From an uncultured Candidatus Saccharibacteria bacterium (GTDB lineage Bacteria; Patescibacteriota; Minisyncoccia; Phycocordibacterales; UBA12079): a stretch of DNA of 61,022 nucleotides. Position 1 is the first letter of the stretch, and the number at the start of each line of letters is the position of its first letter. Positions 171-54,771 of this stretch are shown one piece after another. Made by a program: the position numbers and the translations under genes. The notes under the pieces were generated by a model. The model worked only from the letters and a program-made list of their open reading frames with translations. It did no database searches and had not been told where the DNA came from. The stretch is taken from contig CAZAKQ010000003.1 in assembly GCA_964486155.1 (NCBI GenBank), forward strand, positions 1-61,022, given 5' to 3'.

Positions 171-413
171 TTCGATTCCAAACCACTAAGTAAAATTTTT
201 TGTTCCTAATCTCAAGAATTTGGCCGGGCTGTTTGGTCACAGGTTTTTAAGTAAAGTTTTCGGAATATGCCGGACTGGATTCGGTTTCCAGTTCTAAGTT
301 CAAACTTCATCAAAACTTTTAAAAAAGTTTTGATTTGTTTTCACTAAGAACTCGCAACCCCGCTCACTCAAATTTTTCTTTTGCTATCGCTTCAGAAAAA
401 TATATTCGTTCGT

Positions 414-437
414 TTCGAATCCAGCCCCTGATACGCA
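414..437 (+). repeat. Inverted partial copy of the tRNA-Tyr T-arm and acceptor 3' half
   Basis: ttcgaatccagccc (414-427) is identical to the sense T-loop/T-stem/acceptor start of the minus-strand tRNA-Tyr. It is separated from the tRNA only by the 435-484 hairpin. Confidence 0.6.
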
Positions 438-481
438 CTAAATATAAAAAACAGAGGAAACCCTCTGTTTTTTATATTTAG

Positions 482-6311: not shown

Positions 6312-6857
6312 TTAATCATCTTTAGGAAGTGTTTTTAAAGAATGTAAAATCCAACCTTCCGTTTTTTTGAATTCCCCCTCTTTGTCAGGATTGGAATCCA
6401 AAAAAATATGTTTTTGAGTTATAAATTGTTTTGGAAAGGCTTCCTCTATTAGAGGGATTTCTCTATTAGGTTTTCTTAATTTACTATTTTCTATGGAAAA
6501 ATATCTTGAAAGTAAAGAACCATCTTCTAATATAACTTTAATATAATCTGACGAGGTATTAGGCCCCTCTACAAATTTAATTAATTTATAGGTTTTACCA
6601 TCTATTAAGTTTGTTATAGGCATTCCTTGATAATTTCTTTTAGTTTCAATCTGAGTATTTTTTCTTATTAAACTAAAATGATAAATATTTATAATTATCA
6701 TAAAAAAGTAAAATATAAGGAGGCATAAAAGATATCCGCCATGTGCAATATACGTACATTCTTTTGTTTGTTTCATTTGAAATTTACGATAAGACCAAAA
6801 TAGAAATATTGTTACCCCTAAAACAGTTATAACCGTTGAAAATATTACGGTTTCCAT
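6312..6857 (-). CDS. Hypothetical membrane protein
   Basis: The ORF is 181 aa with two N-terminal TM helices. I recognise no family. Confidence 0.45.
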   Translation of the reverse strand: METVIFSTVITVLGVTIFLFWSYRKFQMKQTKECTYIAHGGYLLCLLIFYFFMIIINIYHFSLIRKNTQIETKRNYQGMPITNLIDGKTYKLIKFVEGPNTSSDYIKVILEDGSLLSRYFSIENSKLRKPNREIPLIEEAFPKQFITQKHIFLDSNPDKEGEFKKTEGWILHSLKTLPKDD

Positions 6858-7024
6858 TTTTCACCTCCTTTAAAAATTAAAATTTCAATAAATACATTTC
6901 TACTGATTAAATAGTAATCTTTAAATAAGTTTTAGTCAATCAGATATCTTGAATTTTAAACAAAAAATTAAAGAATTTAAGTAATCAAATTGCAAAAAGT
7001 TATATCTAATGTATAATTTGGATT

Positions 7025-9809: not shown

Positions 9810-9834
9810 CAAGAATTTTCGCCAGAAAATATCT

Positions 9835-9973
9835 CTGGTAGGATTTGCACGGAACTTTTTCGCCGTAGGATTAAGAAAAAGTCTGAGGTTTTGGGGGAAG
9901 TTTGTGAGTATATCGTGAATACTTGGAACGATACGAACAAACTGGAGGAAAAAAATTCCCACCATGGCCTCAA
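9835..9973 (+). ncRNA. tRNA-Cys-linked shadow unit (inverted 3'-half copy ... direct copy of the tRNA 3' end)
   Basis: ctggtaggatttgcacgg (9835-9852) is a degenerate reverse complement of the tRNA-Cys T-arm and acceptor. tcccaccatggcctcaa (9957-9973) exactly repeats 9796-9812. The two ends can pair (TGGTAGGA with TCCCACCA). Confidence 0.4.
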
Positions 9974-10024
9974 AAAAGTTGAGTATTTTGAAAAATAGTA
10001 TAAAATAAGAAAAATGCCTGGGTG

Positions 10025-10106
10025 GTGGAATTGGTATACACGCAGCACTTAAAATGCTGTCTCTTCGGGGATGCGGGTTCGACTCCCGCCCCAGGCACAA
10101 AAAAGA
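10025..10106 (+). tRNA. tRNA-Leu(TAA), class II
   Basis: The sequence reads GCCTGGG..CAGCA-CTTAAAA-TGCTG..long variable arm..GCGGG-TTCGACT-CCCGC-CCCAGGC-A. Confidence 0.9.
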
Positions 10107-10154
10107 AAACATTAATTATTTAAATTAAGGTTTTTCTTTTTGTTTCCTGCAGGA

Positions 10155-10177
10155 CGGGAGTCGAACGGTGATAGAAA
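10155..10177 (+). repeat. Inverted partial copy of the tRNA-Leu T-arm and acceptor
   Basis: cctgcaggacgggagtcgaacgg contains cgggagtcgaac, the reverse complement of the tRNA-Leu T-arm. It is separated from the tRNA by the 10107-10151 hairpin. Confidence 0.55.
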
Positions 10178-10193
10178 AACTATAAAAAAGTCC

Positions 10194-10266
10194 TCCGTCC
10201 ATAGCTCAGACGGTAGAGCAGCAGCCTCTTAAGCTGACGGTCGCAGGTTCGATCCCTGCTGGGCGG
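10194..10266 (+). tRNA. tRNA-Lys(CTT)
   Basis: The sequence reads CCGTCCA-TA-GCTC..GAGC..CTCTTAA loop..GCAGG-TTCGATC-CCTGC-TGGGCGG-A. The C1-G72 pair is unusual. Confidence 0.8.
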
Positions 10267-22535: not shown

Positions 22536-23228
22536 CTACATCCATTGCTTTGCTTCTAAAGCATTTCTAGCTGCAAGTTGTTCAGCTTCTTGTTTGGAAA
22601 CTCCTTCTCCCTCAGCAATCATTTTATTCCTCAAGAAAACTCCCACTTTAAATTTTTTAGCATGGTCAGGCCCTTCTTCTTCAATAGTTTGATAAGAAGG
22701 AGTTACTCGTTCAAATTCCTGAGCCTTTTCTTGAAAATGACTTTTATTATCCTGCCATAAAGAATCAGCTACTACCGTATCGGTTATTTTCAAAAAATAA
22801 GTGTCAATAAATTCTGCTGCTTTATCATATCCTTGATCTAAATAAATAGCTCCGATAATTGCTTCAATAACATTAGCTACTATAAAATTTCTAGCTCTTC
22901 CGGTATCTTTAGCTTCTCCTTTTGATAATAACAAATAATCATTTACCTCTAATTCCCCTGCTACTCGTAACAAAGAAGTAGTATTCACTATAGCTGAACG
23001 ATAAGCAGTTAAAACTCCTTCTTTTTCTTCTGGAAATTTTTTAAATAAATGATGAGTTACAACCAATTCTAAAACAGCATCACCTAAGAATTCTAATCTT
23101 TCATTATGTTCTAAGTTTTCACCCTTATTTTCATTTAAATAAGAACGATGAGTAAAAGCTGTTTTTAATAAATTAATATCATTAAATTCTATATTTATTT
23201 TTTCAGAAAATTTTTTAAATTTTTCCAT
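22536..23228 (-). CDS. rnc: Ribonuclease III
   Basis: The ORF is 230 aa. It has the signature ERLEFLGDAVLE and a C-terminal dsRBD. Confidence 0.95.
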   Translation of the reverse strand: MEKFKKFSEKINIEFNDINLLKTAFTHRSYLNENKGENLEHNERLEFLGDAVLELVVTHHLFKKFPEEKEGVLTAYRSAIVNTTSLLRVAGELEVNDYLLLSKGEAKDTGRARNFIVANVIEAIIGAIYLDQGYDKAAEFIDTYFLKITDTVVADSLWQDNKSHFQEKAQEFERVTPSYQTIEEEGPDHAKKFKVGVFLRNKMIAEGEGVSKQEAEQLAARNALEAKQWM

Positions 23229-31825: not shown

Positions 31826-31900
31826 GGCCCTATCGTCTAATGGTTAGGACGCAAGCTTCTCAAGCTTGTAATCCGGGTTCGACTCCCGGTAGGGTCACCA
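31826..31900 (+). tRNA. tRNA-Glu(CTC), CCA encoded
   Basis: The sequence reads GGCCCTA..CAAGC-TTCTCAA-GCTTG..CCGGG-TTCGACT-CCCGG-TAGGGTC-A-CCA. Confidence 0.92.
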
Positions 31901-31999
31901 AATCCTGTTTTTCTATATATTTATCCGTCTTGACACAAAAAACCAAAGCATGTTTCGGTTTTTTGTGTTTTTGGGGTAAAATTAAAGATATAAATAAAC

Positions 32000-32905
32000 A
32001 TGCAAAAATATAATTTTATAAAAAAAGATATTATTGATAATTTATCCCATCAAAAAAATCCACCTTTTAAACTTGTTGAAATATGTCATGATATCAATAC
32101 TAATTATTTAAAAAATAGATATCAAGTAGTGATAGTATTTATCAGAGCTGTATTAGATTACATCCCTCCAATTTTTGGATATAAAACAACTTCTCAAGTA
32201 TATAGTAATTTAAAAAAATATAAATCATTCAAAAAAGCTCTAGAAGGAGTAGATAAATCTACAAGAAATCTTGCTGATGATATATTACACAATCAAGCAA
32301 CTATTAATGAAATAATAAAAGTTGATAAACCCTCTTGTGATTTTGTTAGAGATAATTTAACTCTTATTCTTACCTCTGTTATAAATCAATTAGAAAAAAA
32401 AGATTTACGAACTACTTCTCTAAATCGATTAGAAAAAAAATATGAAAAACCTAAATCTCAAATCCAATTATTTGAAAAATATATAAAAAATATAAGAAAC
32501 TGGAAAAAAGAATTTATAAACAGCAAAGAAGTTTGGATTTATTCAAAAGATAATTTATACCAAATTCATCAACAAGATGATATTAAAGATTTTTCAGAGC
32601 CTTGGACTCAAGTTTGGTTCAATTCAAAAGGTTCTGGTAAATATTATATAGATTTAAAATATAATGGTAGCATCATAAAACAATTTCCAATGATTTATTT
32701 TGATGGGGGAAGAGAAAATATAATTATGCCAAAAATGGAAACTTCTTCAAAAACTAATTTCTGGGAAAATAAAGATATTTATGGAGGTCATTATAAAAAT
32801 GTTGCTTACTATATAATTAAAGATAGTATAGAGTACAACCTATCAAAACTTTTAGGTTCAAATATTGAAAAGATAATTAAAAAGTCTAATATTGAGATAA
32901 GATAA
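32000..32905 (+). CDS. Hypothetical protein (orphan, between tRNA-Glu and the tRNA-Glu-like repeats)
   Basis: The ORF is 301 aa and Lys/Asn-rich. I recognise no family. Confidence 0.5.
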   Translation: MQKYNFIKKDIIDNLSHQKNPPFKLVEICHDINTNYLKNRYQVVIVFIRAVLDYIPPIFGYKTTSQVYSNLKKYKSFKKALEGVDKSTRNLADDILHNQATINEIIKVDKPSCDFVRDNLTLILTSVINQLEKKDLRTTSLNRLEKKYEKPKSQIQLFEKYIKNIRNWKKEFINSKEVWIYSKDNLYQIHQQDDIKDFSEPWTQVWFNSKGSGKYYIDLKYNGSIIKQFPMIYFDGGRENIIMPKMETSSKTNFWENKDIYGGHYKNVAYYIIKDSIEYNLSKLLGSNIEKIIKKSNIEIR

Positions 32906-33156
32906 TTTATATAAATAAAACAAAAAACTACCGTCTAGTAACGGTTTCTATTTCTGATAAAATTAGCAAAAATAGGTAGAGGGGTTTGTTTTAGTATGAT
33001 AGATAAGCTATATACAAACTTTTTGCTAATTTTTTATAATTAATATTATTTGGAATTTTCTTTTTTAATTCAGTATAACAAGAATACTTGAGCCAAGGAT
33101 TTTTTTTCGAACAATAACGCTGAAATATTAGGTCTCTTTCATTCTGTGGTTCTAAA

Positions 33157-33185
33157 GTTCGAGAGTTGTCCCGATAGGGTTCACA
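33157..33185 (+). repeat. Degenerate tRNA-Glu 3'-end copy (unit U0) followed by a terminator hairpin
   Basis: gttcgagagttgtcccgatagggttcaca compares with the tRNA's gttcgactcccggtagggtcacca. It is followed by aaaaaactcagtcttttgactgggtttttt. Confidence 0.5.
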
Positions 33186-33224
33186 AATTTAAAAAACTCA
33201 GTCTTTTGACTGGGTTTTTTAAAT

Positions 33225-33367
33225 TCTAGTGAATCCCCTGTGTGGGATAGTCGAAAGTCAGAAGAAAATTCGAGATTTTCTGAGACGGGGTCGAGAACAC
33301 TTTGTAAAATTTGAGTTTACGAAAAATTTTACTTAGTGATTCGTGACCGACTCCCGGTAGGGTCACA
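33225..33367 (+). ncRNA. tRNA-Glu-like structured unit U1
   Basis: It ends in cgactcccggtagggtcac, a 19-nt exact match to tRNA-Glu 31880-31898. It contains two AT hairpins set in G+C-rich junction helices. A 21-bp perfect hairpin follows at 33364-33409. Confidence 0.4.
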
Positions 33368-33409
33368 AATCGCCAAAGAGCAAATAGTTTTGCTCTTTGG
33401 CGATTTGTG

Positions 33410-33525
33410 AAGGCGGAGGCCTATTTTTACGACCTATTAGAGAGTAAAAAAGCTGAGCCGAGGTCACGAACACTTAGATATTTTAAGTCCGTAAGGACGA
33501 AAAAAATATTTAGTGATTCGGGACA
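33410..33525 (+). ncRNA. tRNA-Glu-like structured unit U2 (lacks the acceptor-like 3' end)
   Basis: It has the same module order as U1 and U3: ...ggaggc, AT hairpin, ctgagccgaggtcacgaacac, AT hairpin, gtgattcgggac. Confidence 0.35.
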
Positions 33526-33606
33526 CAAGTAAACTCAGTATGCAAAGCACTCAATTAACTCAACTAAAGAATCAAAGCGAATGCTTTGATTTTTTATATT
33601 TTGGTA

Positions 33607-33770
33607 GACCCTACTGGGAGCCGAAAGACGGAGGCTGCGAAGCCATATTTTTCAGAAAGAAAAATATGCAGTCGAGTCCGGGCAGGAGCCACTTGATAAA
33701 ATATAAGTGAACTTGTGAACGAAATATTTTATCTTAGTGAGCTGACGCCGAATCTTCCGGTAGGGTCACA
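33607..33770 (+). ncRNA. tRNA-Glu-like structured unit U3 with a complete acceptor-type closing stem
   Basis: 5' GACCCTAC (33607-33614) pairs perfectly with 3' GTAGGGTC (33760-33767), followed by ACA. The interior holds two AT hairpins and G+C junction helices homologous to U1 and U2. Confidence 0.45.
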
Positions 33771-33869
33771 AAAACTCAAATATCTTTACTTTTTAAACTT
33801 TTTAGTTTATATTTTTTGTAGAAGAAGTAACAGTTAATTTAAACTTCAAACCCAAAAAGGAGCCCTTTT

Positions 33870-49159: not shown

Positions 49160-49233
49160 ATAATAAATTATATCAAAAATACCAAAATATTTAAACTATG
49201 AATTATTATAAATATTTAGAATTTTAAACTTTT

Positions 49234-49267
49234 AACATTCTAACATTCTATAGAATGTTAGAATGTT
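49234..49267. promoter_or_regulatory. Perfect 34-nt palindrome (aacattctaacattcta|tagaatgttagaatgtt)
   Basis: It lies between the rmuC start (49159) and the promoter of the orphan RNA at 49332. Each arm is a direct duplication of aacattct. Confidence 0.5.
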
Positions 49268-49365
49268 GACTCGTTAAATTTCTTAATTTATCGATTATTG
49301 TCGGTTATAGTGTAGCCGATAAATAGTTTTCTTGACTTTTTTTAATATTTTGATAATATTAAAAG

Positions 49366-49657
49366 ACCGTTACTGTCAGAGAGCACTTCGGAGAACTAGG
49401 GGAAATAATATTTCAAGTAATAATGAGATCGTTTTGTAGAAATGGATCCAATTGATGTCAGTAAAGTACGATATTGAGAGAGAAGGGATTCTCTATATCC
49501 ACTCAATTTCTGAAAAACACTGAATATCTTGTTGTCTCAAGAGAAAACTTTCTATTTCATAGACAAACAAAACTTACCCTAGTTTCTCTGACAGTTGTTA
49601 TAGATGTTCTTTTTAAAGAGATACCACTTGATTAAATGTAACATCAAGTGGTTTTTT
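49366..49657 (+). ncRNA. Orphan structured RNA gene (~290 nt) with a long closing helix; 6S-like architecture is a hypothesis only
   Basis: It has a TTGACT -35 (49332-49337), a 16-nt spacer and a TAATAT -10 (49354-49359). 5' ctgtcagaga..aactaggg (49373-) pairs with ccctagtttctctgacag (49577-49594). It has internal stems and a terminator accacttgat..atcaagtggt followed by T6 (49623-49657). Confidence 0.55.
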
Positions 49658-49679
49658 GTTGTCAAATTTTAATTATTTA

Positions 49680-49786
49680 GAAATCCGACCTCAGTATTAA
49701 TACTAAAAGAAATCCGACTTCGTATTCTATAAAACAAAATTAATTATCTAAAGATTATTGGTATCTTAATTAAGAAGTCGAATTTC
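49680..49786 (-). repeat. Degenerate copy 4 of the ~90-nt 3'-flank element, lacking the 16-nt G+C palindrome
   Basis: The sequence is gaaatccgacctcagta...ctaaagattattggtatcttaattaa|gaagtcgaatttc. It aligns with copy 1 except that TCCGCCAGCTGGCGG is absent. It lies downstream of the P-type ATPase gene. Confidence 0.45.
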
Positions 49787-49907
49787 GTACTAAAATTTAT
49801 GAACATCTTGATTAAAAAATCAAACTTTAATTTTGGGTTGTTTCACTATCGTTCACAAAGACGAATTTTACGAGGCAAAATTCGTTAACAAAAAACTTTA
49901 GTTTTTT

Positions 49908-49932
49908 GTCCCTATCGGACAGGTAGGCAGAG
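49908..49932. repeat. G+C-rich hairpin, family 2 variant
   Basis: The sequence is gtccctatcggacaggtaggcagag. It lies ~32 nt beyond the ATPase stop. Confidence 0.5.
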
Positions 49933-49963
49933 CTGACGACAAAATATGTTAAATTTGAGTTTA

Positions 49964-54087: not shown

Positions 54088-54260
54088 AAAAAAATTAAAT
54101 TAATAATAATTAATATTATTATATAATAATATCACAAAATAACGTATAAAATAGTATTTTTACTGGAAGGATAATCTGATTATTTGGAGATACAGGAAAA
54201 TAAAGAAATTCATTCCATTTCTCAGCACAAATTAAACACCCCAACATGTTGAGGTGTTTA

Positions 54261-54480
54261 ATTTGTGCTGAGGGGCACTCGTCCTGACGATCTCTAAATA
54301 AAATTCTTCGCTATCGCTTAAATTTTATTAAGAGTCGCGGGACACGGCTCACTATCGTTCCGTTTCCTTCGCTTCGCTACGGAATACTCACGATATGCTC
54401 CGCCGTTCGAGCCCGCACGAAAGCCAAACAATTGGCTTTCTCTCTCAACAAAAATTAAAATTCCCGATTTGGGAATTTAA
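54261..54480 (-). ncRNA. tRNA-Phe-linked shadow unit
   Basis: In minus sense it starts just after the tRNA-Phe trailer hairpins. It contains gtgcgggctcgaacggcgg, an inverted T-arm copy whose plus-strand form gttcgagcccgc lies at 54405-54416. It ends in gtgcccctcagcacaaat, which repeats the tRNA 3' end (16-nt identity between 54261-54276 and 54481-54496). Confidence 0.4.
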
Positions 54481-54485
54481 ATTTG

Positions 54486-54558
54486 TGCTGAGGGGCGGGC
54501 TCGAACCGCCGACCCTTCGCTCTTCAGGCGAATGCTCTACCAACTGAGCTACCTCAGC
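54486..54558 (-). tRNA. tRNA-Phe(GAA)
   Basis: The reverse complement reads GCTGAGG-TA-GCTCAGTTGGTAGAGC..TTCGC-CTGAAGA-GCGAA..GGCGG-TTCGAGC-CCGCC-CCTCAGC-A. Confidence 0.92.
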
Positions 54559-54707
54559 ATATTTTATTTTCGATTATACTACCTTATTAATATATATCAA
54601 TATTTTCCGCATTCTGCGAATGCTTTTTCCTATCACCTCGTAAACATCGGTGATTTTCTCACTATCGTTCGAAATCGGATAAAAAACAAAGCAGTTTGTT
54701 TTTTCTT

Positions 54708-54730
54708 CAACTGAGCTACCTCAGCATATT
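54708..54730 (-). repeat. Duplicate of the tRNA-Phe 5' end plus 5 nt of leader (23-nt identity)
   Basis: caactgagctacctcagcatatt at 54708-54730 equals 54541-54563. Confidence 0.85.
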
Positions 54731-54771
54731 TAACTATTCAATTATTATATAATTCTAAAAATATTTTGCAA

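Follow-up and report, generated by a model that had tools for sequence, protein, structure and literature searches.

A G+C-rich unit of about 190 nucleotides (nt; 54260-54451, minus strand) lies downstream of the phenylalanine transfer RNA (tRNA-Phe) gene in the DNA studied here, a 61,022-nt stretch of contig CAZAKQ010000003.1 from an uncultured Candidatus Saccharibacteria bacterium (the whole stretch is called the window hereafter). Comparison with other genomes places it in a conserved, uncatalogued family of structured elements, probably RNAs, in the tRNA 3' trailers of Paceibacteria-like members of the candidate phyla radiation. The layout has four successive parts: an antisense copy of the 3' third of the tRNA, usually split by a hairpin (H1), a core that forms a three-way junction, a sense copy of the tRNA end, and a second hairpin. 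The core, GAGCCGTGTCCCGCGGC...GACCGTCAGGACGA, is the constant module, and the arms are those of the local tRNA. The window unit has everything by which we define the family, namely the core helices P2 and P3, the antisense and sense arms of the adjacent tRNA, and a position on the tRNA strand. Full-text searching of the literature found no description of such units.

The overall G+C content of the window is 28%, and most of its few G+C islands are tRNA genes, of which ARAGORN finds nine. The largest island (54233-54569) reaches far past tRNA-Phe. An earlier inspection of the letters alone (the sequence-only reading) had described there a "shadow unit" of about 220 nt bounded by copies of the tRNA's own end. 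A discrete unit bounded in this way is present, and the interpretation then given to it is partly supported. The features of the unit and of the intact tRNA are these:

54573-54600, minus strand: promoter-like site TTGATA-16-TATAAT (site P2), directly in front of the intact tRNA; with 11 of 12 matches, the region's best
54485/6-54558, minus strand: intact tRNA-Phe (GAA), called by ARAGORN, 72.2 bits with Rfam; CCA not encoded
54444-54492, minus strand: hairpin A, in which the acceptor 3' strand and trailer pair with a downstream antisense copy; 22 nt, 86%
54458-54478, minus strand: terminator-like inner stem of hairpin A, 8 pairs and then a T-run, TAATTTTTGT
54419-54440, minus strand: hairpin H1, 9 base pairs (bp) with a 4-nt loop, interrupting the antisense arm; 9 of 9 pairs compensated across units
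54405-54416, minus strand: antisense copy of the T-loop and T-stem 3' strand (GCGGGCUCGAAC in the tRNA sense); 12 nt, 0 of 300 shuffles
54280-54404, minus strand: conserved core, a three-way junction by alignment, RNAalifold and fold
54260-54279, minus strand: tRNA 3' end copied in sense, with part of the T-stem 3' strand, the acceptor 3' strand, the discriminator and 5 nt of trailer
54221-54272, minus strand: hairpin B, formed by the sense copy with, as 3' arm, a second antisense copy of the acceptor; 26 nt, 96%

The inner part of hairpin A is a predicted intrinsic terminator by the usual signature of a G+C-containing stem followed by a T-run, and its outer part holds the antisense copy of the tRNA-Phe acceptor 3' strand, which reads GUUGAGAG. 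Read as RNA, the antisense copy of the T-stem 3' strand and T-loop is GCGGGCUCGAA; the sense copy reads GCCCCUCAGCACAAAU. Within the core, helix P2 (ACGGC/GCCGU) leads through an asymmetric GGA/GA internal loop to the variable hairpin H2. Helix P3 consists of GUCC/GGAC, a bulged C and GCGR/YCGU (GCGA/UCGU in the window) with a nearly invariant G-U pair, and leads to the variable hairpin H3, capped in the window by AGCGAUAGCGAA. The junction is compact, since P2 adjoins P3, and P3 the T-like helix, with no unpaired bases at either border. Across the family, both the internal and the terminal loops of the core are rich in GA. On the opposite strand, a promoter-like site within H1 (54432-54461, plus strand; TTGGCT-18-TAAAAT, 9 of 12 matches) is aimed antisense into tRNA-Phe and is probably a chance occurrence.

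All the repeats that the sequence-only reading listed for this locus exist, within a few bases of where it had put them, and they are far above chance. The control consisted of mononucleotide shuffles of the 2 kb downstream of each tRNA (n=300), and none of the 300 reached the length of the tRNA-Phe direct or inverted copy. The 3'-end copy, about 220 nt downstream, extends over 20 nt of 3' end and trailer at 95% identity (54257-54276 versus 54477-54496), and 16 nt of it are exact, as had been claimed. The hairpin that holds this copy (54221-54272) is there with arms of 26 nt that are 96% complementary, instead of the 20 bp first given. The inverted T-arm copy is real (54399-54416 versus 54495-54512; 18 nt, 89%) and is only a piece of a longer inverted repeat that spans the whole 3' third of tRNA-Phe, from the T-loop through the acceptor and trailer. 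This repeat is interrupted by H1, so that the copy and the word GTTGAGA, formerly listed apart, are its two pieces. The two trailer hairpins reported are the terminator-like stem (54458-54478) and H1 (54419-54440), and the minimum-free-energy fold contains both the ttccgt/acggaa stem and the AT hairpin. The short word said to occur three times is, as the 13-nt CTCACTATCGTTC, exact at 54348 and 54658 and carries one mismatch at its third site, 49842; the shuffles expect 0.00 occurrences.

Such copies are general and one-sided in the window. Copies of the tRNA's own 3' end lie downstream of the Tyr, Cys, Leu, Glu and Phe tRNAs. None of 300 shuffles reached the observed length of the direct copy for Cys or Glu, or of the inverted copy for Tyr, Cys or Leu. 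The direct copy of Tyr (9 nt) was equalled in one shuffle and the inverted copy of Glu (8 nt) in 22. By the same test, the Lys, Trp, Gln and Arg tRNAs have no copies of their own 3' ends within 2 kb downstream, and upstream of the window tRNAs there is nothing comparable apart from a 5' stump at tRNA-Phe.

Homologous units and the consensus structure

At least nine further Paceibacteria-like contigs carry units of the family, and every unit is on the tRNA strand. Units follow tRNA-Phe in L011, L018, L248 and L138, tRNA-Lys in L082, tRNA-Gly in L192, tRNA-Asp in L243, and both tRNA-Cys and tRNA-Lys in L262; that of L194 sits behind a degenerate tRNA-like sequence. Pattern scans of genome and metagenome collections returned mostly chance matches in G+C-rich DNA and recovered seven real loci. 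Just before the core, every scanned locus has the reverse complement of the local tRNA's T-loop end and T-stem 3' strand, and just after the core comes the sense copy, which starts at C56 in the T-loop and extends past the discriminator by a few trailer bases. The tRNA-Phe of L011 has the T-stem variant GACGG/CCGTC, and the matching change is found both in the antisense arm (GTACGGGC) and in the sense copy (..GTC). As we read the sequence, the acceptor part of that sense copy is still of the CCTCAGC type although the tRNA has TCTCGGC.

An alignment of nine distinct units (A1), made by MAFFT and not fitted to any model, was folded by RNAalifold. The consensus has 39 pairs, 21 of them compensated, and comprises H1, the T-like helix formed by the antisense arm and the sense copy, P2 and P3. 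The covariance model R1 recovers every input unit; the window unit, itself one of the model-building sequences, scores 140.9 bits and forms 38 of the 39 pairs. R1 also found two more units in L192, one after the tRNA-Lys of L262, one in L138 and three in the window at 33249-33774. In the resulting alignment of 14 units, 93.5% of the cells are standard-paired and 32 of the 39 pairs have changed on both sides; because this alignment is fitted to the model its pairing is inflated, and the unfitted A1 (21 of 39) agrees in direction. None of 500 shuffles reached the 14-unit measures, and slid partners pair in only 28-42% of cases. The core segments are invariant between genomes of 28% G+C (the window) and of 42-52% G+C.

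The sequence-only reading had asked whether orthologous tRNA-Phe loci have unrelated spacers; the comparison speaks for the unit, as four other genomes carry a homologous unit there. The five tRNA-Phe-linked units alone are 52-81% identical, keep 36-38 of the 39 pairs and show compensation at 18 of the 39. Because these diverged units keep their pairs with compensation, the structure has been upheld at a single locus type across long divergence. In L018 the sequences of H1, H2 and H3 have changed and still pair, and one extra hairpin is present. In L011 the stump, its insert, the tRNA, the unit and hairpin B are inverted together as a block of about 500 nt (6330-6870) relative to conserved flanking genes. 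In L015, tRNA-Phe has only a long hairpin behind it, which corresponds to hairpin B and has a trailer that matches hairpin B of L018; the stretch between the direct repeats is absent. That genome belongs to a different genus-level lineage, where loss and non-gain are not separable. Contigs that carry homologues of the 111-amino-acid protein adjoining the window locus (about 60% identical; source names Candidatus Pacebacteria and Patescibacteria) keep the order glutaredoxin, tRNA-Arg, small protein, tRNA-Phe, YqeY, P-type ATPase. The Tag glycosylase near the locus has identical protein copies on marine metagenome contigs. Together these homologues place the organism among marine candidate-phyla-radiation bacteria.

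At other tRNAs the units vary in number and in core. The Paceibacteria genome L082 has two tandem units after tRNA-Lys(UUU), with the core in the second. L192 has three tandem units of three core subtypes after tRNA-Gly(CCC), each closing with the tRNA-Gly end:

L192, 5892-6548: tandem array; units 1 and 3 are preceded by a near-identical tRNA-end hairpin (aatataagc[a/g]aagcgcatattgtgcgggatg)

L262 shares with the window the tRNA order Cys-Leu-Lys. The core at the orthologous Cys locus differs between the two, L262 having a Phe-type core after tRNA-Cys and another unit after tRNA-Lys.

Several measures bear on the strand. In the 14-unit alignment, G-U/U-G cells number 31 and A-C/C-A cells 11, or 21 and 11 when the nearly invariant G-U of P3 is left out. 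The tRNA-sense fold of the window unit has -73.9 kcal/mol (z -5.8) and gives the consensus structure, while the other strand has -62.7 kcal/mol. All 14 units are on the tRNA strand. Taken together, the G-U balance, the modelled fold energy and the constancy of strand favour an RNA made in the tRNA sense; a folded single DNA strand of the same polarity would also be compatible with them.

No Rfam (15) family covers the unit, even at E values up to 10, the only matches being hairpin-type chance matches far under the gathering scores, and ARAGORN finds no transfer-messenger RNA (tmRNA). So far as Rfam covers them, tmRNA, group I introns, RNase P, the signal recognition particle RNA, 6S RNA, Y-like RNAs and the known ribozymes were therefore rejected. 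A hammerhead was considered because the window copy has CUGACGA on its opposite strand; GAAA is missing, and L018, judged by eye, does not keep the motif. We also rejected a tRNA-like gene on the opposite strand, whose would-be T-stem is unpaired in the window, L011 and L082, and which the balance of G-U over A-C cells disfavours. A split, permuted or intron-containing tRNA does not fit units that have no D and anticodon arms, and L138 is better read as tandem damaged copies.

The older tRNA-Phe remnant and the other units of the window

The sequence-only reading had found the leader and first 18 nt of the tRNA duplicated upstream, and this copy is exact over 24 nt (54541-54564 equals 54708-54731, spacing 167). 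We place it outside the arrangement of the shadow unit, to which it had been assigned. The features of this upstream region, together with the L138 locus that explains them, are as follows:

54744-54771, minus strand: promoter-like site TTGCAA-16-TATAAT (site P1) before the 5' stump, with a putative role; 10 of 12 matches
54708-54731, minus strand: 5' stump, 5-6 nt of leader and tRNA nt 1-18, stopping in the D-loop at G18; 24 nt exact
54601-54707, minus strand: insert of about 100 nt that breaks the older tRNA-Phe copy, from the repeats and the alignment of the window, L011 and L138
54681-54704, minus strand: terminator-like hairpin T in the insert
about 54652-54676, minus strand: insert hairpin capped by a GAACGAUAGUGA loop
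54609-54623, minus strand: decayed anticodon-arm remnant GCATTCGC..GAATGC (as RNA, GCAUUCGC..GAAUGC)
L138, 2500-3402: two tandem 5'-replaced tRNA-Phe copies, then two units

The insert holds one further hairpin. In the alignment, the window, L011 and L138 have in common a stump ending at G18 or G19 (G19 in L011 and L138), hairpin T, and hairpins with GA-rich loops. In L138 the insert runs directly into tRNA-Phe nt 22-73, and the whole arrangement occurs twice in tandem; ARAGORN calls these 5'-replaced copies tRNA-Phe, and Rfam gives them 27.6 bits, under its 29-bit threshold. At the position of this tRNA body, the window and L011 have GCATTCGC..GAATGC, then a promoter and then the intact tRNA. 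Because the order is conserved in the three loci and L138 keeps the remainder of the tRNA, the upstream 24-nt copy is what remains of an earlier tandem tRNA-Phe copy that a hairpin insert of about 100 nt disrupted within the D-loop. The intact tRNA-Phe would now use its own promoter, site P2. The insert and the downstream unit have a hairpin-loop motif in common, though they are separate elements. The first L138 unit has a diverged P3 (GAGCCGCGTCCAGCG...CGCGGGAC).

Further features of the window that concern the family are listed here:

270-480, minus strand: unit after tRNA-Tyr, made up of a 14-nt antisense copy, a hairpin with a GA loop, a part resembling P3/H3 and the sense copy GAATCCAGTCCGGCA; core homology by eye only
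9811-9985, plus strand: unit after tRNA-Cys, with an antisense T-arm and a sense 15-nt 3' end; the core differs
22536-23228: RNase III gene
31826-31900: tRNA-Glu, the only tRNA of the window with encoded CCA
32000-32905: orphan open reading frame (ORF) of 301 amino acids between tRNA-Glu and its array
about 33150-33185: decayed tRNA-Glu 3' fragment between this ORF and the array
33249-33774, plus strand: array of three diverged units with tRNA-Glu ends; three weak, ordered covariance-model matches
381, 49843, 54308, 54349 and 54659, all minus strand: loop motif (G)ARCGAUAGYGA(A) in intergenic structured elements

The sequence-only reading had grouped the Phe, Cys, Tyr and Glu units. The Phe-type covariance model does find the array with tRNA-Glu ends, which supports part of this grouping; the Cys core differs and is not significant with the model. 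The Cys unit has the layout and a UAUCGU..ACGAUA hairpin in common with the Phe unit. Between tRNA-Leu and tRNA-Lys (region 9811-10194) there is a short unit consisting of a hairpin, an antisense T-arm ACGGGAGTCGAAC and a small hairpin. The Glu array holds sense copies of the 3' end of tRNA-Glu (19 nt exact, beginning 1447 nt downstream of tRNA-Glu), and the region 31826-33780 looks as though something had been inserted between tRNA-Glu and its old array. Neither Pfam nor PADLOC matches the 301-amino-acid ORF, and PHROGs gives weak matches only, to families whose function is unknown.

The loop motif RCGATAGYRA occurs seven times in the window, where 0.31 are expected. Five of the seven fall within hairpin loops between genes, namely in the Tyr unit, at 49843, in the Phe H3, in the Phe H2 region and in the upstream insert. 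Modelled as RNA, GA-(2 bp)-GAUA-(2 bp)-GA would be a mini-hairpin flanked by potential tandem G-A pairs, a form that we infer to be typical of protein-binding or tertiary-contact modules. The intergenic region 49160-49963 (800 nt) has several hairpins and palindromes and the word pair CGAAGTCGGATTTCT and CTGAGGTCGGATTTCT; diverged forms of the pair, CGAAGTCCGACTCC and CTGAGGTCGGACTTCT, stand upstream of tRNA-Tyr (570-800), and these words may be another small repeat family. The gene content of the window is otherwise that of an ordinary chromosome (ClpB, IF-2, ArgRS, DnaE, DnaX, RNase III, NusB, MurJ, LepA, a P-type ATPase and RmuC). The RNase III gene is of relevance here, the tRNA-end/antisense hairpins being 22-30 bp long.

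Possible origins and roles of the units

Folded alone, the window unit has a minimum-free-energy structure closed by UGUUGAG/CUCAGCA, followed by H1 and then by the T-like helix. In this model the closed unit would have the topology of a tRNA, with the core replacing the T-loop. The acceptor-like closure that the sequence-only reading had proposed does form in the fold of the window copy (GUUGAG/CUCAGC), as one of two competing pairings. We favour, at a probability of roughly 0.45, the reading that the unit is a tRNA-trailer RNA, closed and processed by way of its tRNA-derived arms. Transcription would reach it by read-through of the terminator-like hairpin behind the tRNA. The two arms would pair as a closing stem, composed of an acceptor-like helix, a side hairpin and a T-like helix bearing the core in place of the T-loop, and this stem would let tRNA end-processing enzymes, or the RNase III encoded in the window, release a stable RNA of about 190 nt. 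Its GA-rich core may be a protein-binding platform, and the arms may be kept matched to the adjacent tRNA by local copy-correction, through template switching in hairpins or short-tract gene conversion.

A number of observations weigh against a trailer RNA of this kind. At all nine loci compared, the antisense arm pairs better with the real 3' end of the tRNA than with its own distal copy, the duplex energies being -19 to -51 kcal/mol with the tRNA 3' third versus -14 to -35 kcal/mol with the copy. A fold of the full read-through stretch, from the tRNA to hairpin B, unfolds the tRNA and breaks P3; the tRNA from T-loop to trailer is bound by the antisense arm, and the distal copy lies within hairpin B. 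In L011 and L248 the closing stem is decayed in its acceptor-like portion. In most loci the unit is separated from the tRNA by a terminator-like hairpin carrying a T-run, and no separate promoter for the unit is visible in them, so that the unit would depend on read-through past hairpin A. The metatranscriptomes of the same studies gave no reads on the locus, with no RNA run containing the organism at usable depth, and other RNA runs covered tRNA parts only, from other organisms. The covariation and G-U statistics, which come in part from the model-fitted alignment, would equally fit a folded single DNA strand. Finally, exact 30-mers of the unit occur on other contigs of the same metagenomes at similar depth, with different flanks that read as other tRNA-type ends. 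One of these (54381-54410) includes an arm of H2 and the other (54278-54307) an arm of H3, and both arms differ between genomes; a further contig matches 54278-54318 (41 nt) with four mismatches and likewise continues into another tRNA-type end. One and the same core version therefore stands behind other tRNAs of this genome or a very close one, and the shared arms suggest recent spread or homogenisation; neither would be required of a host RNA gene inherited purely vertically.

The distal copy of L262 has drifted from its tRNA and, as its sequence reads, keeps 11 paired positions with the antisense arm, including two G-U; this suggests selection on the closed form. Both pairings thus seem to matter. 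Alternatively, the near-perfect palindrome may be kept mechanically by template-switch correction of quasi-palindromes, a recognised mutational process.

Spread of this kind is what one would expect of a miniature, non-autonomous integrative cassette, the main rival reading, which we hold to be less likely than the trailer RNA. The cassette would be a small circle whose attachment (att) site is the T-loop-to-3'-end segment of a tRNA, acted on by a recombinase in trans. Site-specific recombination would leave a direct repeat of the tRNA end, repeated insertion would build arrays, and the folded core, as RNA or single-stranded DNA, would be needed for mobility. The direct repeats do extend from the T-loop through the 3' end into a few trailer bases, a segment that T-loop-class integrases reportedly leave repeated, and such a repeat of the tRNA 3' segment bounds the insert here (16 nt exact; 20 nt at 95%). 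Tandem arrays combine different core subtypes with one local tRNA end, in L192 and in the Glu array of the window. L015 looks as if the segment between the direct repeats were missing, with only the counterpart of hairpin B after its tRNA-Phe. The orthologous Cys-Leu-Lys loci of the window and L262 carry different units, arms of the variable hairpins are joined to other tRNA-type ends in the same metagenomes, and a 1.3-kb segment with the orphan ORF separates tRNA-Glu from its old array. tRNA gene fragments are generally integration scars (PMC9897764). Yet there is no recombinase in or beside the insert of about 200 nt, and no integrase, transposase or reverse transcriptase beside any array, the neighbours in the window and five other loci being housekeeping genes or unknown small proteins. 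Three scans of IMG/VR viral contigs gave chance matches only, none of which scored with the model; no unit was found on them, and a phage origin was rejected. Comparison of contigs only, in populations covered 8-fold to 14-fold, found no skipped or circular junctions, and the unit is identical in 10 contigs of the same species from different samples. Retention after tRNA-Phe in five diverged genomes, with compensatory evolution, also speaks against a cassette, and simple site-specific integration leaves the antisense arm unexplained.

We rejected three other kinds of mobile or repetitive element. In a miniature inverted-repeat transposable element the terminal inverted repeats would not vary by copy and equal the end of the local tRNA, as they do here. 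The palindromes are tRNA ends with GTTCGA and not the R''/R' boxes (RYYYAAC / GTTRRRY) of integron attC sites, and no integron integrase is present in the loci. The units, at 160-200 nt, do not show the periodicity of a TIGR array, with 8-12-nt repeats and 9-nt spacers.

The competition between the pairings may itself be the function. In a cis-acting RNA switch in the tRNA trailer, which we consider distinctly improbable, the antisense arm would pair either with the tRNA 3' third, unfolding the tRNA, or with the distal copy, closing the core, and a ligand of the core would decide the maturation of the read-through pre-tRNA and the formation of hairpin B. The four successive segments (tRNA end, antisense, sense, antisense) permit two exclusive pairing schemes, and the predicted folds follow them, the unit alone being closed and the full transcript sequestering the tRNA and forming hairpin B. 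The antisense arm is a nearly perfect complement of the tRNA at 9 of 9 loci, and the core is a conserved junction of aptamer-like size. However, a switch would affect read-through transcripts only, the second and third units of an array have no tRNA to regulate, the downstream genes are unrelated between loci, and no ligand or protein is known; the near-perfect palindrome is possibly a by-product of template-switch correction. More improbable still would be an RNA-specified cassette that homes to tRNA genes, its arms addressing both strands of the T-loop-to-3'-end segment and an enzyme in trans inserting or copy-correcting it, which would explain why one core acquires the ends of the local tRNA. 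Least probable of all, and hardly tenable, is neutral debris of tRNA gene rearrangement by duplication, devoid of function. The locus does hold genuine debris in the 5' stump and the decayed anticodon-arm remnant, and L138 has tandem partial tRNA-Phe copies, but the covariation (32 of 39 pairs compensated) disfavours it, as do the invariance of the core segments from 28% to 42-52% G+C, the constant orientation and a G+C island kept in a genome of 28% G+C. The readings are not fully exclusive, and a host-retained RNA may have spread as a cassette.

These genomes are very small and dense, and still the 61-kb window devotes roughly 1.5 kb to units behind five of its nine tRNA genes. Should the units be RNAs, they would make up a new class, apparently widespread, within a bacterial radiation that is among the largest and least understood, with the unusual design of a conserved core between antisense and sense arms of a neighbouring tRNA end, and would bear on the control of tRNA maturation or on a new RNA-protein complex. 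Should they be cassettes, they would represent a new way of colonising tRNA genes in which no recombinase is linked. G+C islands and tRNA fragments of this kind at present lack annotation or are at risk of being miscalled as tRNA pseudogenes, and the covariance model R1 can be used for a genome-wide census and annotation.

Comparison with known systems

The attL/attR scars of T-loop-class tyrosine integrases (PMC9897764) resemble the units in the direct repeat of the T-loop-to-3'-end segment that bounds them, in the intact tRNA and in tandem build-up downstream. The units differ in that their insert is only about 200 nt and has no integrase, that the interior is conserved and covarying whereas phage DNA decays, and that an inverted copy of the site is always there. 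As in integron cassette arrays and pdif modules, short modules are parted by imperfect palindromes (tRNA end, loop, antisense), and the orientation of the sites alternates. The units, in contrast, are structured and non-coding instead of ORFs, their sites are tRNA-specific and have neither attC R boxes nor the dif consensus, and no integron integrase is seen in the loci.

With the bridge RNAs of IS110 and the tigRNAs of TIGR-Tas the units have in common that one element holds a segment complementary to each strand of one target. Bridge RNAs lie beside their own recombinase. TIGR systems are found among candidate-phyla-radiation bacteria, and tigRNAs are of 36 nt, with 9-nt spacers and 8-12-nt repeats, next to a Tas gene with a Nop domain (PMC12045711). 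The segments of the units are longer (12-25 nt) and fully complementary to each other, and there is no effector gene nearby. If the improbable homing reading were true, the units would join bridge RNAs and tigRNAs as a third type of dual-strand RNA guide, one that has no linked effector gene.

The units also resemble tRNA-like and tRNA-linked non-coding RNAs that the tRNA machinery processes, namely tmRNA, the bacterial Y-RNA-like YrlA, mascRNA and small RNAs from 3' external spacers such as 3'ETS-leuZ. The predicted closing stem has the topology of a tRNA, in which an acceptor-like helix runs on into a T-like one; the unit lies within a tRNA transcription unit, and its predicted ends fall at tRNA-type processing sites. 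It differs from these RNAs in matching no Rfam, tmRNA or tRNA model and in having a three-way-junction core in place of the T-loop. Its arms, moreover, copy a particular neighbouring tRNA and include an antisense copy of it, and the units form arrays.

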